Below are positions 7,928 to 64,000 of a DNA stretch of 64,000 nucleotides, piece by piece. How positions within the stretch are numbered: position 1 is the stretch's first letter; every line of letters starts with the position of its first letter. A program made the translations under genes and the position numbers. The notes under the pieces were generated by a model. That model saw nothing but the letters and a program-made list of their open reading frames with translations. It was not told the DNA's origin and did no database searches. This DNA comes from a virus: the IMG/VR virus record IMGVR_UViG_3300009149_000020, positions 18,827 to 82,826 of that record, one strand, 5' to 3'.

Positions 7928-9149
7928 GTATGACGTAAGTATTCATTTTGATGGACAATTTACTATAAAAATTACAGCGGATTGTGCGCGTGACGCATTA
8001 GTTAAAGTTCAACAATTAGACAAAACTTTATTGACTAGTAAGGAAGTTATAAAAGAGCATTTAGTGATTGACGAGGTTGATGCATATCTAAGTACTGCTA
8101 GCTTACAAAATACCGTACGTACTGAGATAAATCAATTAGAAAACTTAGTTAGGAACCCTGATGTTTCGGTACAGACTATCTTGGACTTTATGGCAGAAAG
8201 AAAGATTCTACTATCAGAAACAGATTTCCGCTGTAACAACCGTTGGAGTTGTACATTTGAAAACTTAGTTGCTTGGCACGGTCGACTAGATATTATTAAG
8301 TATTTGAAGGAGCACAACCTCCGCCCCAACTTAGCCTATTTCGAAGCATGGAAAGGATGTGTATACAATAACAATCTTTCTTTCTTAAAAGAGTTACTAG
8401 CACTTGATGATTTTCGTGATAAATGGGAGAAGATTAAAGAAGATACAGCTGAGGGGGTATATCGTGCGTTAGTGGCTAGGTTTTCTTTTGACATGCTAAC
8501 CAATGATACTGTAAGAAAGAAAGGATGGTTTGAAATCTTTAAAGTAGTATACGAGTTTGGCGAAAAGTTTGTTGCAGAGAATCAAAGGAAAAATTTCGCC
8601 ACACTCGTATTGGAGCAGGTATGTCACGGTGCTTCAAGATTCAATAATGCTGTATATTTACCTACTCTCGACTACTTACTACAGAAAAAGAATGCTTCTT
8701 GTAAAAGACAAACTATAATTACAAAAGTATTATTTAGCGAAGATAAAGAGCTCATCAACTACTTCTTTGATAGAGGTGCTACGGATTGTGTTTACAGCAG
8801 AGGTGCGGTTCATATAAATTCAGATGATACTACTGGTATCTTAGACTATATGATAAGTTTCGTTGACATGAAAGCATTTAAGGAATTCTTTAAAGATGTT
8901 GATAAAGAGAAACTGTCGTCCTTAGTCAAACAGAATACGATCAAGAAGTGCATCACATGTTGTAAAGATGAGCAGTTACGCTACTTTATGCATTGGGCGG
9001 GCTATTCACCTTCAGCACAAAAAACGATTCTTTCCTCCTGCTTACTTGATAAACAGCTCGCTACTTGTAAAGATTATATAGTTAAGGTACTTATTCCTAG
9101 TATAGGTACAATACCTATTGAGGAGGTAATAAATGGCAAAGAAAAGTAA
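7920..9149 (+). CDS. Degenerate ankyrin-like helical repeat protein
   Basis: AWHGRLDIIKYL, YNNNLSFLKEL, ELINYFFDRGA; weak tail motif TILSSCLLDKQL. Confidence 0.65.
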   Translation: MPEYDVSIHFDGQFTIKITADCARDALVKVQQLDKTLLTSKEVIKEHLVIDEVDAYLSTASLQNTVRTEINQLENLVRNPDVSVQTILDFMAERKILLSETDFRCNNRWSCTFENLVAWHGRLDIIKYLKEHNLRPNLAYFEAWKGCVYNNNLSFLKELLALDDFRDKWEKIKEDTAEGVYRALVARFSFDMLTNDTVRKKGWFEIFKVVYEFGEKFVAENQRKNFATLVLEQVCHGASRFNNAVYLPTLDYLLQKKNASCKRQTIITKVLFSEDKELINYFFDRGATDCVYSRGAVHINSDDTTGILDYMISFVDMKAFKEFFKDVDKEKLSSLVKQNTIKKCITCCKDEQLRYFMHWAGYSPSAQKTILSSCLLDKQLATCKDYIVKVLIPSIGTIPIEEVINGKEK

Positions 9150-24873: not shown

Positions 24874-25257
24874 GTGCTTAGTGAAGAGAAGATGAAAGAG
24901 TATCAAAAAGAATGGTATCAGAAAAACAAAGAAAAGATAAAAGAAAAGCATAAAGAATACCGTCAGAAAAACAAAGAAAAGATAAAAGAAAAGCATAAAG
25001 AATACCGTCAGGAAAACAAAGAAAAGATAAAAGAATACTATCAGGAAAATAAAGAGAAGCTACAAGAGTATCAAAAAGAGTACTATCAGGAAAATAAAGA
25101 GAAGCGGAAAGCATATTTACAGGAAAATAAAGAGAAGATACAAGAGTATCAAAAAGAGTATCAAAAAGAGTATCAAAAAGAGTATCAAAAAGAGTATCGT
25201 ATCAAAAATAAACAGAGAGCAAACGCACAGAAGATGAAGGAGAAAAGTAATGATTGA
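24874..25257 (+). CDS. Low-complexity (Y-Q-E-N-K-E-K) repeat protein
   Basis: AAGGAGG SD plus GTG; protein built from tandem repeats. Confidence 0.65.
   Translation: MLSEEKMKEYQKEWYQKNKEKIKEKHKEYRQKNKEKIKEKHKEYRQENKEKIKEYYQENKEKLQEYQKEYYQENKEKRKAYLQENKEKIQEYQKEYQKEYQKEYQKEYRIKNKQRANAQKMKEKSND
24918..25198 (+). repeat. Coding tandem repeats (45-bp x2+ and 12-bp AAGAGTATCAAA x4+)
   Basis: 24918-24962 equals 24963-25007; 12-mer array at 25142-25198. Confidence 0.85.
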
Positions 25258-26728
25258 GATTAAAGGAAAGTACACTGAAGCAATTGTACATATTGATGAG
25301 GTAGAAGAAAGCTGCATTGCGCAAATTCAGTCAATGTGCAATCATTCTGCATTTACAAACCCTATTAAAATCATGCCTGATTGTCATGCAGGTAAAGGTT
25401 CTGTGATAGGCTTTACTATGCCGTTAGGAGACATGCTAATTGCTAATGTGGTCGGAGTTGACATAAACTGCGGAATGCTGTCTATAAATGTAGGCCCTGA
25501 CGCATTTACAAAGTTAACTTTTGTTGAAGTTGAGAAAAAGATAAGAGAAGCTATTCCATTCGGAATGTCAACACATACTCCAGAAGACGCTATTAATATG
25601 GAGAAAGAGTTTCCGTGGAAGAACGTTAATGAAGAAGTAAGAGAATTTCTAAGGGCATTTGAAAAGAAATTTGGCTTTACAGTGGCTCCTCCTGTTATTA
25701 ATTATGAATGGTTCAGGGCTAAGTGTAAACAAATAAGCTGTGACCCTTCAAGAGCTATAAGAAGTCTCGGAACACTTGGCTCGGGCAATCATTTCGTCGA
25801 AGTTGGAAAGGCTGAAACCACTAGAGACTACTGGGTTACAATCCATTCAGGTTCTAGAAACTTTGGTAAATGTATTTGTGATTATTGGCAAGGAGTTGCT
25901 AAGAAAATGCTCGATGATAAAAGAAACGGTGCATATCAAGAGAGAGTGTTAACGCTTAGAAGTAACCACGAAGCTGCCGGTACACCTGAGTTAATTCCTC
26001 AAGGCATAAAGCAACTTCGAGAAGAGTTAGGCTTTCTTGGTATAACCAAAGGAATGGAAGCATTAGAAGGAACTGATATGCTTAGTTATTTGATAGACAT
26101 GGTCTTTACACAGAAGTATGCTGATGTGAACAGACAAGTCATGGCTTTCAAAATTAAAGGTATCTTTAAGTGTGAAGAAAAAGACTCTATTCACACTAAA
26201 CATAACTTTATAGACTTCAAGGATTTCATAATTCGTAAAGGAGCTATCAGAAGTTATGTAGATGAAAGAATGATTATTCCTTTTAACATGCGTGATGGTA
26301 TTTTAATCTGTGAAGGCAAATCTAATACTGACTGGAACTTTTCAGCTCCTCATGGTGCAGGAAGAGTAATGAGCAGAGGAGATGCAAAAAGGAAACTTAA
26401 CATGGAGCAGTTTACACATCAGATGAAAGGCATCTATACTACGTCTGTTTGTGAAAGCACATTAGACGAAGCTCCTAATGCTTATAAAAAGTCAGAGTTA
26501 ATTGAAAGTTTGATAGGAGACACAGTTACAATTCTTGATAGGGTTAAACCAGTAATTTCTATGAAAGACAGAGGCTCTGCTCAAACTGCTATTGATAGAA
26601 AGAAAGCAAAAAGATCGTGGAAGAAAGAAAGAAGAGAAGCTGCAAGATACAAAATGCAGGAAGCAAACGCAACTGCAAACCTTCAGAATAACAGACATGG
26701 AGTAGATGAAGAAGGGAGGTTATTTTGA
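25250..26728 (+). CDS. rtcB: RtcB family RNA ligase
   Basis: MPDCHAGKG, GVDINCGM, GTLGSGNHFVE, HSGSR, HNF, RKGA, SAPHGAGR, DEAPNAYK. Confidence 0.95.
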   Translation: MIEIKGKYTEAIVHIDEVEESCIAQIQSMCNHSAFTNPIKIMPDCHAGKGSVIGFTMPLGDMLIANVVGVDINCGMLSINVGPDAFTKLTFVEVEKKIREAIPFGMSTHTPEDAINMEKEFPWKNVNEEVREFLRAFEKKFGFTVAPPVINYEWFRAKCKQISCDPSRAIRSLGTLGSGNHFVEVGKAETTRDYWVTIHSGSRNFGKCICDYWQGVAKKMLDDKRNGAYQERVLTLRSNHEAAGTPELIPQGIKQLREELGFLGITKGMEALEGTDMLSYLIDMVFTQKYADVNRQVMAFKIKGIFKCEEKDSIHTKHNFIDFKDFIIRKGAIRSYVDERMIIPFNMRDGILICEGKSNTDWNFSAPHGAGRVMSRGDAKRKLNMEQFTHQMKGIYTTSVCESTLDEAPNAYKKSELIESLIGDTVTILDRVKPVISMKDRGSAQTAIDRKKAKRSWKKERREAARYKMQEANATANLQNNRHGVDEEGRLF

Positions 26729-46842: not shown

Positions 46843-46859
46843 AAAAAGCTAAAAAAAGG

Positions 46860-46889
46860 TTGACATTTGAGTATTATATACAATATACT
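46860..46889 (+). promoter_or_regulatory. Sigma70-type promoter with A-tract UP element
   Basis: AAAAAGG-TTGACA-18nt-TATACT; same pattern as 61320. Confidence 0.75.
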
Positions 46890-46919: not shown

Positions 46920-47117
46920 ATGGCTCACGTGCGGGAAATCACTATTAGTTTCGGAAGAGGGGTTTCAAGAAACTACCAGACCTTTCGAATCGACAAATCA
47001 CAAGTTATTGTAATGGAAGAGGGCGACGACGCTGCAACTGTTAGACGTGAAGGTTTACGTATGTTAGTAAACGAAGTCAACAATGAGGCTGCGGAAATCG
47101 CAAAAGATTCACTTTAA
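46920..47117 (+). CDS. Small hypothetical protein
   Basis: TAAGGAGG SD; first gene after the promoter. Confidence 0.7.
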   Translation: MAHVREITISFGRGVSRNYQTFRIDKSQVIVMEEGDDAATVRREGLRMLVNEVNNEAAEIAKDSL

Positions 47118-47217
47118 CACTTTTGCAGGAGAACTACATTTTTTTGTTGAGGATTCGTTTTTCGATTAAGGAGATTAATATATCTCGTTGTTCGGCTACC
47201 TAGGAGGGTAAAACAAA

Positions 47218-53167: not shown

Positions 53168-56074
53168 ATGTATGTAACTTTACTGCCGCAAAAAGATCTG
53201 GTTTCACTACCAGAGGTTACCGCGACGAAACCTTACAGTAAGAAAACTCTCTTTCATCCTGAAGGATTGTATTCTGAACAGATTTTCGGGCCTGTTAATG
53301 ATTATCAATGTCAGTGTAAGTTATACATTGGCAAACTACATGAGGGTAAAATTTGCCCTTTATGTCATGTTAAGATAACAAGCAGCTTAGCAAGATTTGT
53401 TAACTTCGGAAGAATCACACTCGCATATCGCGTAACACACCCTTATATTGTATCCTTTTTGTCGAAAGAGTTCGGACAACAGAAAGTTAAAGGTATTATA
53501 TATGGAAAGAAGTTTTACAAGGTAGCGAACAAACAGCTAGAGGAAGCAGATGAGTCAGATCCCGCTAGTGGTACTGGAGGAGATTTCTTATATAAGAATC
53601 TTTTTAAACTGAACATTAGTGATAAGAACTTCAAGAAGTTTGCAATGCAGTTTAAGGACGAAATGTTTCCTTTACACATTCCGGTCCTTCCTGTAGGTAC
53701 TAGAAATATGTTGAAGGTCGATAACATTATAGTAGTCGACGATCTTAATAATATATATGTACGTATGTTAAGAAAGAACGATGCAACAAAGCGTGTATCT
53801 GTTTTTGAAAAGACATTACTCGTAGAGTATTATGAGATACAAACATTTATAGATGAGTTTTTTCAAAAGGTAGAAGAAAAGTTAAGCAAGAAGAAAGGGC
53901 TAATCAGACAGAACCTTCTAGGCAAACGAGCAGACTTTAGTTCACGTGCAGTTATTGTACCTAACCCTAAGCTTGATTTAAATACAGTGGAACTTCCATT
54001 AGAGATGTGCAAAGAACTTTATAAGTTTCACGTATTATCATATCTGATAAACAACAAACAGCTTCCTCTTATTACAGCATTCGATAAACTAGATACTTTG
54101 TCTGATGATGAGTATGTTGTAATTCTTGACGAAATACTGTCAACGAGTTGCGTTATTTTAAATAGACAGCCAACGTTACACAGATTAGGCATGATATCTT
54201 TCTTCCCGAAAGTTAAAAAAGATACATCAGCCATTGCAATTCCTGTATTGGTATGTCCTCCGTTTAATGCAGACTTTGATGGAGATCAGATTGCTGTATA
54301 TTTGCCGTTGTCGGAAGCAGCATTGGAAGAAACAAGAACATCCTTGCTAGCTGAGAATCAAATTATATCTCCTTCGTCTAGAACTGTTACTTTCCTTCCA
54401 AGTCATGATATCATTCTTGGTTTATATAAACTAACAAAGAAGGGGCCCGACAAAGCAGTATCGGAACTTAGCCCAGCTAAGAAGTTACAGACATTGATGA
54501 CACTTGACCATAATCTATGTGTAACCTACAAAGGAAATGTAACGACTATAGGTAGAGTTATATTTAATAAGATTCTGCGAGAGAAGATTCCTTTCGTAAA
54601 TGAACCTGTAACTAAAACAGTACTATATAACGTTTTACAGGCAATGGGATTAAGACCTTATTTAAAAGACATTCTTGAAGATATAAAAACAATAGGGTTT
54701 ACTACAACCACGCAAATTGGGTCATCCTTTTCAGTTACAGATTTCATGCTTCGTGAAGCTGTTAAAGCAAAAGAAACTATAACGGATGTTCGCGATATGA
54801 AAACTATGGCTGACTTGAGTGATATTATGCAAAATGAGTTGGAGGAGAATCCAGTCTTTGATATGATTAAATCTGGTGCAAGAGGAAGCTGGAAACAGGT
54901 TTCACAGATTTCATTGTTTAAAGGATTAGTTACAGACGTTGTTGGAAATATCCAATCTGATCCTATAACGAATTGTTTGATAGATGGACTTACGCCACAA
55001 GAATTTTTTAGGTCCAGTTACGGTTCAAGAAAAGGTGTTGTCGATAGCAGTCTTAATACAGGCACCTCTGGTCATTTAACACGAAAGCTTATCTTTGCCT
55101 TGTCTCCTTGCATTATCAACAAAGAGTTAGAAGATTGCGGAACTGACAGATTCTTTGATTTAGTTGTTGATGATGGTACAGTAGACTTCTTAAAAGGTAG
55201 GTATATTAAAGAAGGTGTAAAGATAGTTGAAGTTACCAAACCAGAAAAGTATTTAGGTAAAGTGGTAAAGCTACGAAGTCCTATCTACTGTCAAGGAGAC
55301 AGAGGTTTCTGTAAAAAGTGTATTGGTGGTTTTTCATGGGGAGAGCAAGTAGGCATACTTGCCGCACAGGCAATGGGAGAAAGAGCTACCCAGATGACTT
55401 TAAGAACATTTCATATGGGTGGTGTAGCTGAATCAGCTCTTGGAGAATTACTTGATAAACTGAATCATAAATTCCTAGAAATAGAAGATAATAAAATCAT
55501 AGCTTCAAAAGACGGGGATCTGTACTTAGTTGATTCAGACGATGATGCAGAAGAAGATTATTATGCAATTAAGTTCACAGGGCAAAACCCAATAGTGTTT
55601 GAAAAGATCCCTGAGATAGATTTATACCACATAGGTCACTTTACTGAGGGTACGACACTAATGAAAATAGATTTACAGAATCAAGATATTGTTAGTGACT
55701 TACGACAGCTTAGATACTTGCTTGATAATAAGAAAATATGTGCAGAGTATAAAGGTCAAAGCTTTTATAGACTCTTTAACCACTTGCTAACTATTTTCAA
55801 GAATTACGGATTAATTGATATAATCTTTTTGGAAGTGTTGTTATCACAACTTGCTTACTCAGAAAATATTCCTCTGAGATTTACACAAGCAACATTACCA
55901 GATGAGATTAAAACATTATCATCATTGCCGCTGCATACATCCATTATGCAGGGCATGGCTTTTGAAAGGTTCAAGAGCGCAGTCGTAAGAAGTTTGGAGT
56001 GTATTAAAGATCATAAACTCAGTCCTAACAAAACACTTTCTATTCTAGAGAAAATTGTTATGCTAGAGTTTTAA
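53168..56074 (+). CDS. rpoC: Phage-encoded RNA polymerase beta' subunit
   Basis: GLYSEQIFGP, Zn finger, RQNLLGKR.DFS.R, NRQPTLH, NADFDGD, TQMTLRTFH. Confidence 0.95.
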   Translation: MYVTLLPQKDLVSLPEVTATKPYSKKTLFHPEGLYSEQIFGPVNDYQCQCKLYIGKLHEGKICPLCHVKITSSLARFVNFGRITLAYRVTHPYIVSFLSKEFGQQKVKGIIYGKKFYKVANKQLEEADESDPASGTGGDFLYKNLFKLNISDKNFKKFAMQFKDEMFPLHIPVLPVGTRNMLKVDNIIVVDDLNNIYVRMLRKNDATKRVSVFEKTLLVEYYEIQTFIDEFFQKVEEKLSKKKGLIRQNLLGKRADFSSRAVIVPNPKLDLNTVELPLEMCKELYKFHVLSYLINNKQLPLITAFDKLDTLSDDEYVVILDEILSTSCVILNRQPTLHRLGMISFFPKVKKDTSAIAIPVLVCPPFNADFDGDQIAVYLPLSEAALEETRTSLLAENQIISPSSRTVTFLPSHDIILGLYKLTKKGPDKAVSELSPAKKLQTLMTLDHNLCVTYKGNVTTIGRVIFNKILREKIPFVNEPVTKTVLYNVLQAMGLRPYLKDILEDIKTIGFTTTTQIGSSFSVTDFMLREAVKAKETITDVRDMKTMADLSDIMQNELEENPVFDMIKSGARGSWKQVSQISLFKGLVTDVVGNIQSDPITNCLIDGLTPQEFFRSSYGSRKGVVDSSLNTGTSGHLTRKLIFALSPCIINKELEDCGTDRFFDLVVDDGTVDFLKGRYIKEGVKIVEVTKPEKYLGKVVKLRSPIYCQGDRGFCKKCIGGFSWGEQVGILAAQAMGERATQMTLRTFHMGGVAESALGELLDKLNHKFLEIEDNKIIASKDGDLYLVDSDDDAEEDYYAIKFTGQNPIVFEKIPEIDLYHIGHFTEGTTLMKIDLQNQDIVSDLRQLRYLLDNKKICAEYKGQSFYRLFNHLLTIFKNYGLIDIIFLEVLLSQLAYSENIPLRFTQATLPDEIKTLSSLPLHTSIMQGMAFERFKSAVVRSLECIKDHKLSPNKTLSILEKIVMLEF

Positions 56075-56090
56075 AAAGGAGAATACGTAA

Positions 56091-59000
56091 ATGAACCAAA
56101 TGCAAATCTATCCTTTTGAGAGGAAGTCAGACCTGTTAGAATTTTTCGAGTTCGATCAAGATAGGCTTAAGAATAAGATTTTTAAGATTTTTAAGTACCT
56201 GGAATACACAGGTCATGTTGAAGTAAAAGATGTTGAATTCAGCTTTAAACCTAGAGGTCTTAAGTATTATCGTCTATACAAAACTGATACATTTACAGCA
56301 AAGGTTACTTGTCAGGTAACCGATAGAGAAAATGTTATGGAGAAGATATTTTCACTACATTTGCCACTAATGCTAAACAGAAAGTTTATGATCAATGGTT
56401 ATGAGAACACTCCAGTGTTTCAGTTAGTAGACCCCTCCATAGTGTCAAGGCCTGGATTAATTTTTGTAAGATCTGCTTTTAATGATCTATCGATTGTGTA
56501 TGATAAGCTTGGAGAGAAGTGTAAGGCATACATATTCAAGAAGAAGATCCCTCTATCAACAATTCTATTTGCTGTTAATGGTTTTAGAAAAACATGTAAG
56601 CAGTTTGGAGTAGTTGCAAGAAAGAAGAAATATGATCCTGCGGTTGATTCAAAAGAACATAAAATGATCTTCAAGGATAAAAAGAATTCTCAGTGCATTG
56701 AAATTAAGAATATGGATCAACTTGACCCGCTTGGTAAAATGATTTTTATGACAGCTTGCAACGAAACGTATAGAGATGTGCTGGAAGAGTTTGCAACCGA
56801 TTCATACTTTGTAGGGATGCTAGGTTATTACTTCTTTGATAAAAGGAACTTCAAAAAGAAAGGACAAGAGATTTTAGAGAGTCTGGAAAATTCCTTCTTT
56901 GATCCGATTACAAGAGACCAGTTAAATTATGATGGAAACTTTGCAAACTTCTTAATCAAGACTATAACAGATTATAAGTCTGAGCAAGAGTTTGATTTCT
57001 TGGACCTTTCAAGACGTGTACTACGTTTAGAAGACTACTTGCTAACACCTTTATTTAAGAAAGTATTCTCTATTGTTAGAGTTAGCATGAAGTACCCACA
57101 AAGAGTTCATCACATCAAAATTAAACCTGATGAAATAATGAACTCTTTGCCGAAAGCAGAACTCCAACCTCTTGTGCAATATGATTCATCAACAAACCCA
57201 ATAGCGGAAGTAGCTAACTTTTATAAATGTTCTGTTTTCGGAATAGATGGTTTACAAAAAGATCAAGTATCCTTAGCAATGAGAAATCTACATCCTTCCT
57301 ACTATGGGGCGATATGCCCCATAGATACTCCAGATGGTCCTAACTGCGGAGTAGTAACAAACTTAACAGCTACAGCGCAACTTGATCTTGAGACGGGAAA
57401 AGTAGTGCTTGATAAAGAAATGAAAACAAAAGATGTTGTTTCTATTTCAGTAGCAACCATTCCTTTCTTAGAAAAGAATGACGGTGTTAGGTTACAGATG
57501 GGAGCTAATCAAAGTGAACAATCACTTATTCTAGAGAATGCAGACATTCCTATGATACAGACAGGTGTAGAACATATGACTGCAAAAATGAGTACGTTTA
57601 CACGTCGCAGTCCTGTTGATGGCTCAATCCTTTTTGTAAATAAGGACTTCATTATTGTAAAGTCAGATCTTACACAAAAGAATTTCTTAGTTGATACGAG
57701 AGACGAATTTACAAGAAAGAAAGTTTTCAAACAATTTAAAACTTCTGTGAAGGTTGGAGATAAGGTTACCAAGAATCAGATAGTTGCCTACGACAAGTTT
57801 TCAATCAAGGATGAGAAAACCTGCATTGGTAAAAATATGAAAACATGTTTTTATTGCTACGAAGGTTATACATACGAAGATGCTATTGTTATTTCAGAAG
57901 CTGCTTCTGAGAAATTAACACATTGGTCATACAATGTTGCTGACATTCATCTTGAACCACACGAGACATTAAAGAAGCTTAGCACTGGCTATTTACCCAC
58001 ACAAGGTGATGTAATAGTCGATGGATTGGTTGCTCGAAAGTATTCTGTTAAGCCAGAAACCCAAGTCTTATTTGATTTTGATAAAGAGACAAGAGACATA
58101 ACTATTCCTGAAGGATCTGAGATTATGCGTGTAGAGGTTTTTATTAATGATGTGCATGTACTTGATGATGATCTTGCGCAGGTTTTAGATACTATAATGA
58201 AAAAACAGATTGCAGAAGAACAGGCTCAGCTAAATGTAGTAAAAAGATTTATTGATGATCCTTTAACAGCAGAACAGTATAAGACGGAGCTTGTAAGAAG
58301 TAGCAAGATTGGTAAGTTTTATACTAACAAACATTTTGAAGGTGTACTGATTAAAGTTTATTCAAGGAAGAAGCATAAAGTACATGTAGGTGATAAGCTT
58401 GCTAACAGAGCAGGAAATAAAGGTGTTATATCTTTGATACTTCCAGAGTCAGCTATGCCTAGAGATGAGAATGATCAGCCATTCGAGGTTTGCTTAAATC
58501 CTATGGGTGTCATTACTCGAATGAATGTTGGACAGTTATTTGAGTTAACCTTAACTACTGCTTGTAAAAAGATTACAGAGATGATGTCAATCGAAAGCTC
58601 AGGAGCTGCATTACAGTTGATGACAGAGTTTATTGAGCTAATAGACAATACAGAAAAACAATGGTATTCAAAACAAGTAAAAGATAAGATAAAAGGAATG
58701 ACAAAAGCTGAGAAGGACGCTTTGTATAATGACGTTATTCTAAAGGGCCTAACTGTTTATCAGCCACCTTTCTGCTCAATCACTAAGGACAACTATCTAC
58801 AGATGTTAAAAAGGCTAGATATACAAGAAAAGCAGCATTTGTTTATTCCTGCTTATAAAAAGCGAACTACTGAACCAGTAGCATGTGGTTACATGTACAT
58901 GTTAAAGTTATTGCATACGTCAGAGTCAAAAATACATAGTAGAGCAACAGGACCTTATTCACAACTTACAGGGCAGCCTTTGCAAGGAAAAAGGAATCAA

Positions 59001-59249
59001 GGAGCACAGAGGTTAGGAGAAATGGAAATCTGGGCATTAGCAGCACATGACGCATCAGCTGTAATAAAAGAAATCCTAACAATTAAGAGTGATGATGTAA
59101 AGGGTCGTAAGATTATGATTAGAAACTTTCTAGATGCTACACCTATTACTTTACCTAACTCTGAATCTTCTTTGTCGAAGAATATATTCCTGGCTTACCT
59201 TAAAGGGTTGATGCTTGATTTGAAAAGATTCGATACTGAGGAGGATTGA
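56091..59249 (+). CDS. rpoB: Phage-encoded RNA polymerase beta subunit
   Basis: HPSYYG.ICPIDTPDG.NCG, IPFLE.ND..R..MGAN, YEDA, GDKL..R.GNKG, R.GEME.WAL. Confidence 0.95.
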   Translation: MNQMQIYPFERKSDLLEFFEFDQDRLKNKIFKIFKYLEYTGHVEVKDVEFSFKPRGLKYYRLYKTDTFTAKVTCQVTDRENVMEKIFSLHLPLMLNRKFMINGYENTPVFQLVDPSIVSRPGLIFVRSAFNDLSIVYDKLGEKCKAYIFKKKIPLSTILFAVNGFRKTCKQFGVVARKKKYDPAVDSKEHKMIFKDKKNSQCIEIKNMDQLDPLGKMIFMTACNETYRDVLEEFATDSYFVGMLGYYFFDKRNFKKKGQEILESLENSFFDPITRDQLNYDGNFANFLIKTITDYKSEQEFDFLDLSRRVLRLEDYLLTPLFKKVFSIVRVSMKYPQRVHHIKIKPDEIMNSLPKAELQPLVQYDSSTNPIAEVANFYKCSVFGIDGLQKDQVSLAMRNLHPSYYGAICPIDTPDGPNCGVVTNLTATAQLDLETGKVVLDKEMKTKDVVSISVATIPFLEKNDGVRLQMGANQSEQSLILENADIPMIQTGVEHMTAKMSTFTRRSPVDGSILFVNKDFIIVKSDLTQKNFLVDTRDEFTRKKVFKQFKTSVKVGDKVTKNQIVAYDKFSIKDEKTCIGKNMKTCFYCYEGYTYEDAIVISEAASEKLTHWSYNVADIHLEPHETLKKLSTGYLPTQGDVIVDGLVARKYSVKPETQVLFDFDKETRDITIPEGSEIMRVEVFINDVHVLDDDLAQVLDTIMKKQIAEEQAQLNVVKRFIDDPLTAEQYKTELVRSSKIGKFYTNKHFEGVLIKVYSRKKHKVHVGDKLANRAGNKGVISLILPESAMPRDENDQPFEVCLNPMGVITRMNVGQLFELTLTTACKKITEMMSIESSGAALQLMTEFIELIDNTEKQWYSKQVKDKIKGMTKAEKDALYNDVILKGLTVYQPPFCSITKDNYLQMLKRLDIQEKQHLFIPAYKKRTTEPVACGYMYMLKLLHTSESKIHSRATGPYSQLTGQPLQGKRNQGAQRLGEMEIWALAAHDASAVIKEILTIKSDDVKGRKIMIRNFLDATPITLPNSESSLSKNIFLAYLKGLMLDLKRFDTEED

Positions 59250-59250
59250 C

Positions 59251-59373
59251 ATGTATGTGTGTAGTGATTGTGGTTATAGATTCAGCAGACTTTCTGCAGA
59301 ATTTATTGATGGTGAAGAATTGTGTCCTGAATGTAAAAGTAACTTCATAAGATGGAAGGAGAAGCAAAGATGA
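59251..59373 (+). CDS. 40-aa zinc-ribbon protein (not in ORF track)
   Basis: GAGGAGG SD; MYVCSDCGYRF...ELCPECKS; stop overlaps next ATG. Confidence 0.75.
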   Translation: MYVCSDCGYRFSRLSAEFIDGEELCPECKSNFIRWKEKQR

Positions 59374-59795
59374 TTAAAAAGAGTTTCACACTTGGCTTAA
59401 ATGTTGCATTGAATACGTCCGATAATGTTATGACTTTCTGTATACCTAAAACAAGGCTATCCTTCACTTTAAAGACTGAAGGAGAGAAGGAAGTTGCTAA
59501 GGCTTTCAATACTCTCGATTTTGCACAATCTGATACTTTTAGACCGGGCGCTATGAATGCTGGTTTAGATGGAACTAAGAAAGGGCTAATGTTTCATAAC
59601 ATGGAATGCACTGTTCTTTTACAGTCCTCTACTATCTTATTAAAAGATCAGAGGAGAGTATTTGTGCATTCGATTAACATAGCTACGGAGTATAAACATA
59701 CTATGAACATTCTTTATGTAAATCCTATAGACATGTTAATTAAATTTTCAGAGTTTTTTGAAGAAGGAGAAGTATTATATACTAAGATGGCTTAA
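59370..59795 (+). CDS. Hypothetical protein
   Basis: ATGA overlap, AAGGAG SD. Confidence 0.65.
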   Translation: MIKKSFTLGLNVALNTSDNVMTFCIPKTRLSFTLKTEGEKEVAKAFNTLDFAQSDTFRPGAMNAGLDGTKKGLMFHNMECTVLLQSSTILLKDQRRVFVHSINIATEYKHTMNILYVNPIDMLIKFSEFFEEGEVLYTKMA

Positions 59796-59809
59796 AGGAA
59801 GTATACGTA

Positions 59810-60565
59810 ATGGCATTTGATTGCACCGATGATGACAACAGGATGATGGCTATCCTAACTAAGCTTAGAGAAAAATATCCTATTCCTCTTGAGGATATAG
59901 AATTTGCTAGAAATCGACCAAATCCTGAACATAGGCAAGGTTATTATGAAGCTGTTAACTGGGATGACGATAACGCAAAACTAGACGCTGCTCCTAAGAT
60001 AAGGTATATTTACTATGCTAAATGGTCTTGGGAGGACGAAGCTGCTATAAAAGATATTGATCTTTCGATAAGAGCTGCTTACTTTACAAATAATCCTAAA
60101 GATGAGAGAGCTAAAGAAGCTCCAGAATTTTCTATACAGATGCAATACTTTGCCAACAACCCACTTGACCCAGTTGCAGCTGTTCATTCAAATGAATTTA
60201 TAAGACTTCAATATCATCAAGCTTCCTCGTGGAAAGACTATTCATGGTATAACGATGAAAGCATAATGATTATCAGAATGGGCTTTCTAAATTGTACTGA
60301 CTTTACTATCACAGAATCATTCTATCAAGCTCTTGAGAAACTATTCACAACGCAATTCTGCACAAGCACCGTAAACTTAAAAATTGTACTTAGAAGACTT
60401 GATGCTATAGTGCTGGCTGCTCTTGCTTTTAGAAAGATTATTGATCCAAATGTTAAAAATATTATACAACAAGTATTAAAGGAGAAACAAAATGTCGCCG
60501 AAATATCAAGATCCACGGATAGCTTACATACCGATGACTCGGACAGCCCTGAAGAGGGCTATTAG
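59810..60565 (+). CDS. WxD..A..D...IR..YY repeat protein with shared C-terminal motif
   Basis: Paralogue of 37026; tail LDAIVLAALAFRKIIDPNVKNII. Confidence 0.75.
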   Translation: MAFDCTDDDNRMMAILTKLREKYPIPLEDIEFARNRPNPEHRQGYYEAVNWDDDNAKLDAAPKIRYIYYAKWSWEDEAAIKDIDLSIRAAYFTNNPKDERAKEAPEFSIQMQYFANNPLDPVAAVHSNEFIRLQYHQASSWKDYSWYNDESIMIIRMGFLNCTDFTITESFYQALEKLFTTQFCTSTVNLKIVLRRLDAIVLAALAFRKIIDPNVKNIIQQVLKEKQNVAEISRSTDSLHTDDSDSPEEGY

Positions 60566-61145
60566 AAAACAATGTCAATTTGTTTATGCCAGGGTACTAT
60601 CTCAGAGTCCCTTAGGTAATGTGCTGTGCAATCCTTTAGTTAGTGCATGGGCTAGAGGTTTTCAATATAGATGGTACGAAAGAACAGAAGAGTTAAACTT
60701 AGTAATTCATTGGCATGCGTTAATGTTCTGTCCTAATGTTTGCAGGTTGATTAAAATGCAGCCTCAAATAGCGTGGGACGTATTTGAAAACTTATACAAG
60801 AACACAGATATAGCAATGCTTGACAATTCAACTAAGTTATTGATAGAAAACATAAACGATACTCGTACTGTATTACAAAAACTGGAACCCGGAATAAATG
60901 AGTTAGAATTAAATAGAAGAGCTAATGTATTAGGTCATCAGGTCATTCCACAGTTAGTACTTGATTTCTTCTTTAACGAGCAGTTCATAATAGCACAAAC
61001 AAAAAAGTTTTTAAGAAATTTAAATATGTTAACCGAAGTTAAACACTTACTGTTCTCTGGTGTTACACAAGCACCGTTTATGCGTGAAGGTATTACTGCT
61101 TATTTAGAAGAGAGTGAAAATAATAATAAAGAGAGTATTACTTAA
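60492..61145 (+). CDS. Hypothetical protein with shared C-terminal motif
   Basis: AAGGAG SD; tail LTEVKHLLFSGVTQAPFMREGI. Confidence 0.65.
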   Translation: MSPKYQDPRIAYIPMTRTALKRAIRKQCQFVYARVLSQSPLGNVLCNPLVSAWARGFQYRWYERTEELNLVIHWHALMFCPNVCRLIKMQPQIAWDVFENLYKNTDIAMLDNSTKLLIENINDTRTVLQKLEPGINELELNRRANVLGHQVIPQLVLDFFFNEQFIIAQTKKFLRNLNMLTEVKHLLFSGVTQAPFMREGITAYLEESENNNKESIT

Positions 61146-61146
61146 C

Positions 61147-61314
61147 ATGAGGACTTTAAATACCGGAGCATTTTTATTCGTTGATACTGATGGCGAGCTT
61201 TCAGTCAGGATAAGAACAGACGTCTCTGGTATAGGTGAGTTCGACGAAGTAGTAAAGATACCGAAGGATGATGCAGAGCAGTTGCTCGAGTGGTTAACTA
61301 AAAATAAAAAATAA
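61147..61314 (+). CDS. Small hypothetical protein
   Basis: ATG 61147 directly after previous stop. Confidence 0.55.
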   Translation: MRTLNTGAFLFVDTDGELSVRIRTDVSGIGEFDEVVKIPKDDAEQLLEWLTKNKK

Positions 61315-61319
61315 AAAGG

Positions 61320-61348
61320 TTGACAAGTACGTTTTTCGGGTCTATACT
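61320..61348 (+). promoter_or_regulatory. Sigma70-type promoter of the tRNA operon
   Basis: A-tract, then TTGACA-17nt-TATACT. Confidence 0.85.
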
Positions 61349-61373
61349 CATATTAAGAAGGAAACTAAAACAA

Positions 61374-61484
61374 ATGTTATCACGAATGAGAAATTATTTT
61401 AGCACAGTATCAGGAACCGTACAGGGTTGTTCCATTAATATAAAATGGAATAATGATGCGGAACATTCGGAGTTATATATGTAG
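61374..61484 (+). CDS. Attenuator leader peptide (36 aa, MLSRMRNYFSTVSGTVQGCSINIKWNNDAEHSELYM)
   Basis: AAGAAGGA SD; 19 of 20 amino acids and 27 distinct codons; stop lies in the antiterminator arm. Confidence 0.75.
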   Translation: MLSRMRNYFSTVSGTVQGCSINIKWNNDAEHSELYM

Positions 61485-61535
61485 TTGCCTTTTTACACAT
61501 AAAGATAGAAACCCAAAGCTGGGGAGGCAACTACA
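61480..61535 (+). promoter_or_regulatory. Antiterminator helix
   Basis: TGTAGTTGCCT (61480-90) is the exact reverse complement of AGGCAACTACA (61525-35), extendable by 4 G-U pairs. Confidence 0.8.
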
Positions 61536-61551
61536 CCTCCTCAGCTTTTTT
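61515..61551 (+). terminator. Intrinsic terminator (attenuator) immediately before the first tRNA
   Basis: AAAGCTGGGGAGG-caactaca-CCTCCTCAGCTTT then T-tract. Confidence 0.88.
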
Positions 61552-61560
61552 GTTATTAAC

Positions 61561-61647
61561 GGAGAGATAGTCTAATTGGCAAGACAGCAGGCTGTAACCC
61601 TGTCGCTAAAACTAGCATTGGAGGTTCGAGTCCTTCTCTCTCCACCA
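61561..61647 (+). tRNA. tRNA-Tyr(GTA)
   Basis: Cloverleaf, long variable arm, encoded CCA. Confidence 0.9.
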
Positions 61648-61654
61648 GACATTG

Positions 61655-61727
61655 GGTGGTATGTAGATTAGATCCCTGGCTTAGGGGAAGACGTCTTAAC
61701 CTAAGTGAAGACTAATAGAACGCCACC
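61655..61727 (+). ncRNA. Candidate rod-like structured RNA inside the tRNA array
   Basis: Nested stems GGTGG/CCACC, ATTAG/CTAAT, CTTAGG/CCTAAG, AAGA/TCTT. Confidence 0.4.
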
Positions 61728-61758
61728 GCTATTAAGCCAAGGTAAAACTTGGTAGAAC

Positions 61759-61835
61759 GTGGCCGTTGGCAAAATGGATAAGCCACCAGATTGTGGTTCT
61801 GGTCATTGGGGGTTCAAGTCCCCTCGGTCACCCCA
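61759..61835 (+). tRNA. tRNA-His(GTG)
   Basis: Cloverleaf, C73, CCA; position -1 is C, not G. Confidence 0.9.
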
Positions 61836-61911
61836 GCGGGTGTAGCTCAGTTGGTAGAGTTCCTGCCTTCCAAGCAGACTGTCGCGAGTTCGAGCCTCGC
61901 TACCCGCTCCA
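61836..61911 (+). tRNA. tRNA-Gly(TCC)
   Basis: Cloverleaf, CCA. Confidence 0.92.
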
Positions 61912-61949
61912 GAAAATTATACTCAGGAGGGTATAAAAATATAACAAGT

Positions 61950-61976
61950 AGGGGTATGGTGTAGTCTGGTAACATG
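61950..61976 (+). pseudogene. 5' fragment of a tRNA (Pro-like acceptor strand plus D-arm)
   Basis: AGGGGTATGGTGTAGTCTGGTAACATG stops at the anticodon stem, abutting tRNA-Trp. Confidence 0.5.
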
Positions 61977-61977
61977 T

Positions 61978-62052
61978 AGACCCGTGGTGTAATGGCTAGC
62001 ATTACTGTCTCCAAAACAGTTGATGAGGGTTCGAGTCCTTCCGGGTCTGCCA
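61978..62052 (+). tRNA. tRNA-Trp(CCA)
   Basis: Cloverleaf, G73, CCA. Confidence 0.9.
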
Positions 62053-62061
62053 AACAAATGA

Positions 62062-62138
62062 AGCCGAGTGTCCGAGTGTGGCTCAGGTGGAAGACTGCAA
62101 ATCTTTCTACGTCGGTTCAAGTCCGACCTCGGCTTCCA
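62062..62138 (+). tRNA. tRNA-Cys(GCA)
   Basis: Cloverleaf, U73, CCA. Confidence 0.9.
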
Positions 62139-62139
62139 A

Positions 62140-62216
62140 GGACCAGTAGCTCAAATGCGTAGAGCTCCCGGCTCATAACCGGATGGTTGAAGGTTCGAGT
62201 CCTTTCTGGTCCACCA
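62140..62216 (+). tRNA. tRNA(CAT), most likely Ile2 (lysidine type)
   Basis: GGACC acceptor and CGG-CTCATAA-CCG arm resemble bacterial tRNA-Ile2; elongator Met not excluded. Confidence 0.75.
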
Positions 62217-62255
62217 AAAGATTAAGGAGAAGATAAATATAGAAGTAAGTTAAAT

Positions 62256-62332
62256 GGGTCCGTAACTCTAATTGGGAGAGTGTCTGCCCTGCAAGCAGAA
62301 AGTTGAGAGTTCGAGTCTCTCCGGATCCACCA
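62256..62332 (+). tRNA. tRNA-Ala(TGC)
   Basis: G3-U70 pair, CCA; C at position 33. Confidence 0.88.
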
Positions 62333-62340
62333 GAAAGTAA

Positions 62341-62417
62341 GCCCTGGTATATCAATTGGCTAGATAGTCGGTTTTGTAATCCGAAGGCTGTAGGTTCGAG
62401 TCCTACCCAGGGCCCCA
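62341..62417 (+). tRNA. tRNA-Thr(TGT)
   Basis: Cloverleaf, CCA. Confidence 0.9.
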
Positions 62418-62427
62418 AATATTACGT

Positions 62428-62515
62428 TGAGCGATGACCGAGTGGTCGAAGGTGGATGGCTGTTAACCATTTAGGAGAAATCCTCACGTAGGTTCAAATC
62501 CTACTCGCTCAGCCA
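62428..62515 (+). tRNA. tRNA-Asn(GTT) with long variable arm
   Basis: U1-A72, G73, CCA; AGGA-GAAA-TCCT variable stem. Confidence 0.85.
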
Positions 62516-62525
62516 AACTTTACGT

Positions 62526-62601
62526 GGTCCCATCGTCTAATGGCTTAGGACGGCAGACTTTCTATCTGCAAATGTCGGTTCGATTCCGACTGGGACTACC
62601 A
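62526..62601 (+). tRNA. tRNA-Glu(TTC)
   Basis: Glu-type body GGTCCCATCGTCTA; loop CTTTCTA (U37). Confidence 0.85.
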
Positions 62602-62611
62602 AACATTACGT

Positions 62612-62686
62612 CGGTGTGTAGCCAAACGGTAAGGCATCGCCCTTTTAAGGCGAGGATTGGAGATTCGACTTCTCCCACACCGACCA
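62612..62686 (+). tRNA. tRNA-Lys(TTT)
   Basis: Cloverleaf, CCA. Confidence 0.88.
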
Positions 62687-62758
62687 GCTAGTAAGTATTA
62701 ACATATATAACAATAGTTTTTAATGGAGGTACGGTAGTAATAACAGTTTAAGAAACGT

Positions 62759-62836
62759 TGCGGGATGACGCAGTCTGGTCAGCGTGCAAGCCTCATAAGC
62801 TTGAAGTCGAGGGTTCAAATCCCTCTCCCGCTACCA
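62759..62836 (+). tRNA. tRNA-Met(CAT), initiator-like
   Basis: 1:72 mismatch (U:U), TTCAAAT T-loop; lacks the three consecutive G-C anticodon pairs. Confidence 0.8.
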
Positions 62837-62837
62837 A

Positions 62838-62913
62838 GGGTGATTAGCTCAGCTGGGAGAGCACCTCTTTTACACGGAGGGGGCCGGCAGTTCAATCCTG
62901 TCATCACCCACCA
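62838..62913 (+). tRNA. tRNA-Val(TAC)
   Basis: Cloverleaf, CCA. Confidence 0.92.
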
Positions 62914-62914
62914 G

Positions 62915-62990
62915 GCGGTTATAGTTCAGTTGGAAGAACATCTGCTTGCCATGCAGAAGGTCGTGAGTTCGAACCTCACTAACCGCTCCA
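62915..62990 (+). tRNA. tRNA-Gly(GCC)
   Basis: Cloverleaf, CCA. Confidence 0.92.
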
Positions 62991-62991
62991 C

Positions 62992-63073
62992 GGTGGTATG
63001 GTCTAGTTAGGTCTAGGACGCCTGGTTGTCAGCCAGGAAACTTTCGGGGGTTCAAATCCCCCTACCACCGCCA
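62992..63073 (+). tRNA. tRNA-Asp(GTC)
   Basis: Cloverleaf, G73, CCA; slightly enlarged variable loop. Confidence 0.88.
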
Positions 63074-63075
63074 AA

Positions 63076-63162
63076 GGAAGGCTCGCCTAATTGCGCAGGG
63101 CAGCAGACTTGAAATCTGCCGGGGTAAAACCTGTGGGGGTTCGAATCCCTCGCCTTCCGCCA
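63076..63162 (+). tRNA. tRNA-Ser(TGA)
   Basis: Long variable arm, G73, CCA. Confidence 0.9.
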
Positions 63163-63169
63163 AAAGTAA

Positions 63170-63244
63170 AGCCGAGTGGTGTAATCGGCAACACGAAAGA
63201 CTCTGACTCTTTCGTTCAAGGTTCAAATCCTTGCTCGGCTTCCA
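63170..63244 (+). tRNA. tRNA-Gln(CTG)
   Basis: Cloverleaf, CCA. Confidence 0.88.
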
Positions 63245-63251
63245 GATATGT

Positions 63252-63327
63252 GCCGCTTTCGTATAGTTGGTCTGTACGCTGGATTGAAGCTCCAGAGGTC
63301 TCCGTTCGATCCGGAGGGGCGGCACCA
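63252..63327 (+). tRNA. tRNA-Phe(GAA)
   Basis: Cloverleaf, CCA; G37. Confidence 0.88.
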
Positions 63328-63335
63328 AATATTGT

Positions 63336-63411
63336 GCTCCTGTGCGCCAACTGGATGGCAAACGGCCTTCTAAGCCGTAACATGCAGGTTCGAGTCCTGC
63401 CAGGAGTACCA
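63336..63411 (+). tRNA. tRNA-Arg(TCT)
   Basis: Cloverleaf, CCA. Confidence 0.9.
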
Positions 63412-63419
63412 GTAAGTGA

Positions 63420-63496
63420 GGGGATGTGGCGCAACTGGACAGCGCTACTGACTTCGGATCAGAAGGTTGAGGGTTCGAATCCTTCCATCCCCGCCA
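63420..63496 (+). tRNA. tRNA-Arg(TCG)
   Basis: Cloverleaf, CCA. Confidence 0.9.
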
Positions 63497-63567
63497 AACC
63501 CTTCGCACCAAGTGCGACAGTGAAACACCTGTGGGTTAAGATGTTTGACATTATATAGTTATTGCGT

Positions 63568-63643
63568 GGCCCTATAGTTTAGGGGTTTAGAATACTGGCC
63601 TCTCAAGCCAGAGACAGCAGTTCGATTCTGCTTAGGGCTACCA
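63568..63643 (+). tRNA. tRNA-Glu(CTC)
   Basis: Cloverleaf, CCA. Confidence 0.88.
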
Positions 63644-63744
63644 AACTTCTTCAGTGAAAAATTAAGAAAAAATAGGTAGTTTTTCTTACAATTTTTTTTA
63701 AGGTTACTGATCTTTTTCTATGAAAACAATAAGGAGGAAATGTT

Positions 63745-64000
63745 ATGAAATGTCAAAAGTTTGAAGTCAACTTCGTTTCTTATGATGGCAAGTACCCTTG
63801 TCTATGTTTCGGCACACTTGTGCTCTCATTAAATGGTAAGAATATAACTTTTCCTTCATCTTGTTTGTCTTCCGGAGGAAGTACGTACTTCACCAATGAT
63901 TATGCAGAGAGTCATGTAGAACGAGGGTCTTGGTCTATAAGCGACTGGCCTGAAGGTTGGCCTGAATGTGCAAAGAGACAAGCGGAAGATGTTGTTAACA
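63745..64000 (+). CDS. Conserved phage hypothetical protein, 5' part (runs off window)
   Basis: TAAGGAGG SD; MKCQKFEVNFVSYDGKYPCLCFG..LSSGGS. Confidence 0.7.
   Translation, partial: MKCQKFEVNFVSYDGKYPCLCFGTLVLSLNGKNITFPSSCLSSGGSTYFTNDYAESHVERGSWSISDWPEGWPECAKRQAEDVVN

Follow-up and report, generated by a model that had tools for sequence, protein, structure and literature searches.

We describe a short open reading frame (ORF) in phage DNA from the IMG/VR virus record IMGVR_UViG_3300009149_000020 that precedes a cluster of 21 transfer RNA (tRNA) genes and contains a codon for every tRNA species in that cluster. Based on its sequence and on folding models, we consider it probable that this ORF is the leader peptide of a ribosome-mediated transcription attenuator that gates the phage tRNA operon, with a leader composed so that all 21 tRNA species are needed for its translation. 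This explanation is based on the improbability of complete coverage, the choice of codons in the leader, a mutually exclusive pairing between terminator and antiterminator, and a predicted sensing range that matches the positions of the codon classes. The window analyzed, to which all coordinates refer unless otherwise indicated, is the last 64 kb (64,000 nt; record positions 18,827-82,826) of the linear 82,826-bp record, and it is given as one strand, 5' to 3'. The features of the locus are collected in Table 1.

Codon content of the leader

The leader ORF is composed of ATG, 35 further sense codons and TAG, with 27 distinct codons that specify 19 amino acids, Pro being the one absent. An initial annotation of this DNA had reported these counts and had claimed that each tRNA of the array has a leader codon that it can read; both the counts and the list of codons were correct when recomputed. 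Under strict wobble rules (G34 reads C/U, U34 reads A/G and C34 reads G, with one of the two CAT anticodons taken as Met and the other as Ile2/ATA) the leader has a codon for 21/21 anticodon classes of the array. The isoacceptors also correspond as had been claimed, with both CGA and AGA, both GAA and GAG, and both GGA and GGT in the leader, and CAG as its only Gln codon. Altogether 30/36 leader codons are readable by the array, compared to an expectation of 67%. A single cognate codon represents 15/21 classes, the sole tandem repeat is AAT AAT, and there are no runs or clusters of a regulatory codon.

The initial annotation had reasoned that its proposal would fail if such coverage were common in random coding stretches, and we found it to be rare (P ~2e-6). 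None of the in-frame 36-codon windows of the 99 long ORFs reached 20 of the 21 classes (0/20,831; maximum 19, mean 13.3), and in a six-frame scan of the contig the stop-free windows with at least 20 classes were confined to 61359-61374. The exact probability of 21/21, calculated by inclusion-exclusion for independent and identically distributed codons drawn from the phage codon usage, was 2.0e-6. This value changed to 2.8e-6 with the ATG start taken as given, to 6.4e-6 with both CAT tRNAs treated as Met, and to 9.1e-5 with U34 permitted to read whole four-codon boxes.

The correspondence between leader and array is beyond chance and has two layers, amino-acid diversity and codon choice. With regard to the first, 19 or more amino acids per 36 codons were found in 1.7% of windows. 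With regard to the second, when the peptide was held fixed and synonymous codons were resampled by usage, 21/21 was attained in 0.3% of trials (P 0.003). Division of the codons into 32 NNY/NNR classes placed 20 classes in the array and 25 in the leader, and 20/20 of the array classes were within those of the leader (Fisher P 2.4e-4, computed by hand). The leader uses the rare codons CGA, GCG and TCG, and CAG instead of the commoner CAA, while it avoids GTT, GCT and CTT, all of which are common in the phage and have no reader in the array.

As a control, the coverage statistic was applied to ~870 small ORFs in and around 15 other tRNA arrays (from 8 cultured phages and 7 environmental jumbo-phage contig stretches), for which the minimum P was 0.001, as chance predicts. 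The order of the leader codons had no relation to the order of the tRNA genes (Spearman -0.26, P 0.26).

Terminator and antiterminator

In the fold of the nascent RNA to position 61536, the segment 61481-61492 pairs with 61524-61535 (-20.5 kcal/mol), and the full duplex of 61479-61494 with 61520-61535 has 16 pairs and a free energy of -21.7 kcal/mol (12-16 bp overall). This duplex, the putative antiterminator, takes up the 3' part of the terminator left arm along with the loop and is, in silico, mutually exclusive with the terminator, the fold of which (61515-61548) is of comparable stability at -21.9 kcal/mol. Complementarity as strong as this between leader and terminator left half was observed in 2/2000 dinucleotide shuffles (shuffle P about 0.001) and in 3/581 genomic tiles.

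The folding was repeated codon by codon with a ribosome footprint masked (A site -15 to +12). In these folds the antiterminator forms whenever the A site is at any of codons 1-32, keeps 9 pairs at codon 33, and does not form for codons 34-36 or for the stop. By codon 33 each of the 21 classes has appeared at least once, and the final codons, TTA TAT ATG, add no class. The initial annotation had guessed that the last codons cannot sense, which agrees with the blocking of the antiterminator at codons 34-36. The hairpin within the ORF (61426-61454), whose stability was equaled in 0/200 shuffles, could serve as an RNA polymerase pause site.

In the mechanism that we propose, host RNA polymerase would start at the promoter upstream of the ORF and a ribosome would load on the nascent leader. 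Under prompt decoding, the ribosome would get to codons 34-36 and the stop and cover 61479-61494; the terminator would then form and the array would be off. If any one tRNA species were scarce, whether because a host anticodon nuclease cleaves it, because the phage causes host tRNA to be lost or because it is not charged, the ribosome would stall at the corresponding codon within codons 1-33, the antiterminator would form before the 3' arm of the terminator is made, and transcription would enter the 21 tRNA genes. The fresh tRNAs would be expected to relieve the stall, a negative feedback. The view of the initial annotation was that the leader samples nearly all tRNAs so that loss of any one of them trips the switch. 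This view is partly supported, by the coverage, the class association, the resampling and the geometry of the antiterminator, with the switch itself a function predicted in silico.

Table 1. Positions of the leader, its signals and the tRNA array in the window
Feature	Position	Strand	Evidence or remark
Sigma-70-type promoter, TTGACA-17-TATACT with AAAAAGG upstream	61320-61348	+	11/12 consensus matches
Shine-Dalgarno-like AGAAGG, 12 nt 5' of ATG	61356-61361	+	5/6 match to AGGAGG
Leader ORF, 36 sense codons then TAG	61374-61484	+	Reads 21/21 anticodon classes of the array
11-bp hairpin within ORF (codons 18-27), possible pause/synchronizing hairpin	61426-61454	+	-11.6 kcal/mol, z -3.9
Antiterminator 5' arm, stop codon (61482-61484) inside	61479-61494	+	Pairs with 61520-61535
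Antiterminator 3' arm, identical to 3' part of terminator left arm plus loop	61520-61535	+	Folding, shuffles
Intrinsic terminator, 13-bp stem (7 G-C), 8-nt loop, T-run	61515-61554	+	-21.9 kcal/mol
21 tRNA genes, tightly packed	61561-63643	+	ARAGORN and Rfam tRNA
Protein gene	starts 63745		After array; window ends at 64000

Alternative explanations and related systems

A number of features weigh against an attenuator. It is known from one locus only, without an orthologue in the collections searched, and because there is no orthologue there is no covariation for either the ORF or the helices. The 12-nt spacing between the Shine-Dalgarno-like sequence and the ATG is in the tail of the distribution for this genome (mode 4-6 nt), and six leader codons (TTA twice, AGC, ACC, TCC and ATT) are without a reader in the array. 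Most classes are present once, which is expected to stall ribosomes less strongly than the repeated codons of classical leaders do, and GAG, the sole codon for tRNA-Glu(CTC), is at the edge of the sensing range. The phage also has its own multisubunit RNA polymerase, which may bear on the response to the terminator. In addition, the terminator always wins at equilibrium and the switch decision must therefore be kinetic, while ribosome-free nascent RNA also folds into the antiterminator, so that the off state needs efficient translation.

We weighed three other explanations for the locus. It could be a general sensor of translation stress, of the whiB7/bmrB kind, with a real uORF-terminator switch that reacts to any slowing of ribosomes; selection would have favored diverse codons for breadth, and part of the exact one-to-one fit to the array would be coincidence. 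The architecture of the predicted terminator/antiterminator switch and the six codons outside the array are in keeping with such a sensor, diverse upstream ORFs (uORFs) are known in this role (PMC10274678), and the Anabaena trn operon is a known case of a tRNA array induced by general translation stress (PMC8421152). However, the association of leader and array classes persists both when the diversity of the leader is given and when the peptide is given (the Fisher and resampling tests above), and the leader avoids common codons that the array does not serve while using rare ones that it does. We therefore regard a general sensor as rather unlikely.

We find each of the two remaining explanations improbable. 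The ORF could be a small-protein gene of the ordinary kind, expressed and terminated by signals of its own, with the array expressed from leaky read-through or other promoters and the coverage a coincidence of a diverse peptide. Promoter, ORF and strong terminator do form a self-contained unit, a promoter of this type also drives an ordinary small gene elsewhere on the contig (at 46860, see below), and no homologue points to a regulatory role. Set against this are the size of the coincidence required (P ~2e-6), the location of the stop codon inside a statistically unusual antiterminator arm, and the fact that the first tRNA gene begins only 7 nt past the terminator T-run (61554 to 61561). In the stretch from the terminator to the last tRNA, the only further promoter-like match is a weak 9/12 site at 62898, within the tRNA genes. 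Alternatively, the ORF may be untranslated, and the region may act as a 5' leader or processing signal, or as a partial terminator that is constitutive and sets the level of the array. The long Shine-Dalgarno spacing is consistent with this, as is our estimate that a 36-codon stop-free run is expected in ~6% of frames at this base composition, but an untranslated ORF would account neither for the complete coverage nor for the signal in codon choice, nor for a stop codon that falls within the antiterminator arm.

Ribosome-mediated attenuation has well-known precedents in enterobacteria, in which leaders may respond to a single amino acid (trpL, hisL, leuL and pheL) or be multivalent, as for ilvGMEDA (Ile/Leu/Val) and thr (Thr/Ile), and contain runs of one to three amino acids; the pheM leader ahead of pheST is a further example. 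The locus described here is like these classical attenuators in its promoter, short ORF and alternative antiterminator and terminator, in that the position of the ribosome would decide the outcome, and in that the regulatory codons match what the operon supplies. It differs in its output, since the classical systems control enzymes or synthetases and this one would control tRNAs, in its sampling of 21 species mostly once each, in its phage setting, and in having no Rfam leader family. A cmscan search of 61000-64000 (E up to 1) had no match to the Rfam leader families (His, Trp, Leu and Thr) or to the T-box, and returned only tRNAs and chance-level matches. T-box riboswitches are similar in that their terminator/antiterminator, ahead of translation-related genes, responds to the state of a tRNA; however, they bind one uncharged tRNA directly without translation, whereas the element here would rely on a translated ORF.

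The whiB7 uORF of M. smegmatis contains every amino acid but Cys (19) and is followed by a rho-independent terminator and antiterminator (PMC10274678). This uORF is induced when any of many different biosynthetic, tRNA or synthetase genes are knocked down, and when its single Trp codon was changed the response to Trp deprivation was significantly smaller (PMC10274678). As whiB7 shows, single codons in a diverse uORF can act as sensors. The contrast drawn in the initial annotation, that classical leaders sense one tRNA, was overstated in that the multivalent ilv and thr leaders and the whiB7 uORF (PMC10274678) sense many. The leader here resembles that of whiB7 in being a long, diverse ORF (19 amino acids in 36 codons) that precedes a rho-independent terminator with an antiterminator. 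In contrast, the whiB7 uORF is enriched in Ala, controls a WhiB-family transcription factor and has no codon-anticodon match downstream, whereas the leader here has one Ala codon and its output would be the tRNAs themselves, giving direct feedback.

Large tRNA arrays under stress control are known from Anabaena sp. PCC 7120, whose trn operon and related L-arrays are horizontally mobile, contain ~23-26 tRNA genes, are silent by default, are induced by impaired translation, and are linked to and co-regulated with rtcB (PMC8421152; TrcR, PMC10272220). The combination of a large tRNA array and rtcB is shared with the phage. Control of the Anabaena operon is at the promoter, by direct repeats and a repressor (PMC8421152; TrcR, PMC10272220), as opposed to the leader attenuation proposed here, and the terms "leader", "attenuat-" and "terminator" have 0 occurrences in PMC8421152.

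A parallel to the leader exists in the phiCbK-like Caulobacter phages, in which an ORF of 39-45 codons and a hairpin with a T-run precede a block of Pro/Lys/Leu/(His)/Ala/Ser tRNA genes. In Ccr34 the ORF is annotated, has 45 codons (L112:8593-8730), and is followed by a hairpin with a T-run at ~8797-8835 and then by the tRNAs Pro Pro Lys Lys Leu Leu Leu Ala Ser Ser. This ORF covers 10/10 classes of its block, with 23/44 codons readable versus 26% expected (P 1.6e-4). RBC11, CcrColossus and CcrPW have ORFs in the same place (L126:1533-1670; ~1270-1391 in L125 and L124) with divergent sequences. The ORFs of these phages encode nearly only Ser, Ala, Thr, Leu, Pro, Lys and His, the same amino acids that their blocks serve, and this composition is kept between genera despite divergence of the peptide. 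Based on this matching of codons and the retention of composition as the sequences diverge, the codon-matched leader design recurs, at the level of sequence, in an unrelated, cultured phage family. The two cases are alike in having a small ORF and a hairpin with a T-run directly 5' of a tRNA block, with the ORF built from the codons of that block. They differ in that the Caulobacter phage ORFs repeat the codons of a few amino acids per block while the leader here is a near-minimal list of one codon per tRNA for a 21-tRNA array, and there is no sequence homology between them.

Our literature search found no description of leader-peptide control of tRNA genes. The locus would apply ribosome-mediated attenuation to tRNA genes by way of a checklist of all of their tRNAs. 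The presence of tRNA genes in phages has been put down to codon compensation and, lately, to the replacement of host tRNAs that defence nucleases destroy (PMC10264068, PMC11464382), while the control of their expression is largely undescribed. If the attenuator operates as proposed, phages would gauge, one codon at a time, how well the cell can decode and would produce tRNAs on demand, and the attenuation logic of amino-acid and synthetase genes would extend to tRNA genes themselves. The element could also be a compact natural reporter for tRNA-targeting toxins. A more tentative suggestion is that the leader serves as a sentinel, resolved by anticodon, for host immunity that targets tRNAs, forming a self-limiting counter-defence circuit, and that it is one of a widespread and undescribed class of tRNA-gene attenuators in large phages. 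Were this so, cleavage or loss of any 1 of the 21 tRNA species would switch on the full replacement set, whose tRNAs would in turn shut the switch off again, the likely triggers would be anticodon nucleases such as those of the PrrC, RloC, colicin-like, PARIS or VapC types, and the leader codons would be the input list of the circuit.

Promoter, tRNA genes and phage context

The G+C content of the phage DNA is 36.7%, and 99/99 of the long ORFs are on the same strand. The phage encodes a multisubunit RNA polymerase, of which two large beta/beta'-like proteins are at 53168-59249, a family-A DNA polymerase, and an RtcB-type RNA ligase at 25250-26728 (PHROG tRNA splicing ligase, E 6e-117). These genes, together with the 36% completeness that CheckV gave the record, indicate that the record is part of the genome of a large, probably jumbo, phage. 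The RtcB ligase fits a genome that is invested in tRNA conflicts.

The promoter ahead of the leader is one of only two intergenic sites on the contig with at least 11/12 consensus matches. The other, at 46860, has AAAAAGGTTGACA and TATACT in common with the leader promoter and drives an ordinary gene. In extended form this second motif is AAAAAGGTTGACA-N18-TATACT at 46852-46889, and the gene, of ~65 aa, is at 46921-47118 and has a strong Shine-Dalgarno sequence. The two copies of the extended motif suggest a phage promoter class that would be read by host RNA polymerase. The leader ORF starts 26 nt past the -10 box, and its Shine-Dalgarno-like sequence is unpaired in the nascent-RNA fold. An alternative start for the ORF, TTG at 61320, was ruled out as it falls in the -35 box. 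At the end of the array there was no convincing terminator candidate (z -1.7).

Searches for leader and array DNA (megablast and blastn) in 50,697 phage records produced generic tRNA matches only, and neither the terminator nor the His-Gly junction, each searched as an exact pattern, had a match in IMG/VR. No orthologue of the leader was found in the phage, IMG/VR or JGI collections searched. The upstream neighbor, which encodes 217 aa, had no homologue but itself among 5.8 billion proteins; a protein identical to a neighbor is present on a 49.8-kb contig. The closest relatives of the lineage are two or three environmental contigs, with an RNA polymerase beta that is ~60% identical. Two of the relatives (L001 and L054) are syntenic up to the gene before the orphan neighbor and then diverge, and they have no tRNAs at the syntenic site or anywhere in 84 kb, while the third (L053) is too short to judge. 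A relative of the downstream gene (L123) has no tRNA nearby, and in distant jumbo-phage relatives the tRNAs are dispersed and there is no comparable ORF.

A subsurface metagenome contains the phage DNA, and an aquatic metagenome contains it at low depth. The subsurface sample covers 91% of 59300-63999, and low-depth contigs of the separate aquatic study are identical or ~99% identical. The piece 61380-61535 is identical in contigs of four runs of this second study (one aquatic sample), and informative variation is therefore absent. Among the sequencing runs searched, no RNA sequencing run contained the locus.

ARAGORN and the Rfam tRNA model concur on 21 tRNAs in the array (all 21 above the Rfam gathering score), in the order Tyr His Gly Trp Cys CAT Ala Thr Asn Glu Lys CAT Val Gly Asp Ser Gln Phe Arg Arg Glu. 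The leader codons without a reader had led the initial annotation to predict further tRNAs downstream. This was not borne out, as there are none in the remaining 357 nt of the contig, where the protein gene begins, nor anywhere else outside the array in the 82.8-kb record, which is ~36% complete, so that tRNAs beyond it are possible. The first CAT tRNA (62140-62216) is most similar to the Ile(GAT) tRNA of Pseudomonas phage PaP1 and the second is most similar to Met tRNAs; it is plausible from these similarities that one is of the Ile2 type and the other is Met. How the CAT tRNAs are assigned does not affect the coverage of the array by the leader.

Several members and spacers of the array are unusual. 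The tRNA called as Asn(GTT) (62428-62515; 88 nt) is of class II shape, with a long variable arm, and has G73 as its discriminator, as is typical of bacterial tRNA-Ser, and its codon, AAT, is the commonest in the leader (four occurrences). The tRNA-Asp(GTC) (62992-63073; 82 nt) has its anticodon at position 37 and an enlarged variable region, which is unusual for a class I tRNA. The 111-nt spacer between tRNA-Tyr and tRNA-His (61648-61758) has a very stable fold (-35.5 kcal/mol, z -3.9) and no Rfam family match, and may be a small structured RNA that is co-transcribed with the array. Directly 5' of tRNA-Trp, the segment 61950-61977 resembles the 5' acceptor and D-arm half of a tRNA, and is probably a truncated tRNA remnant.

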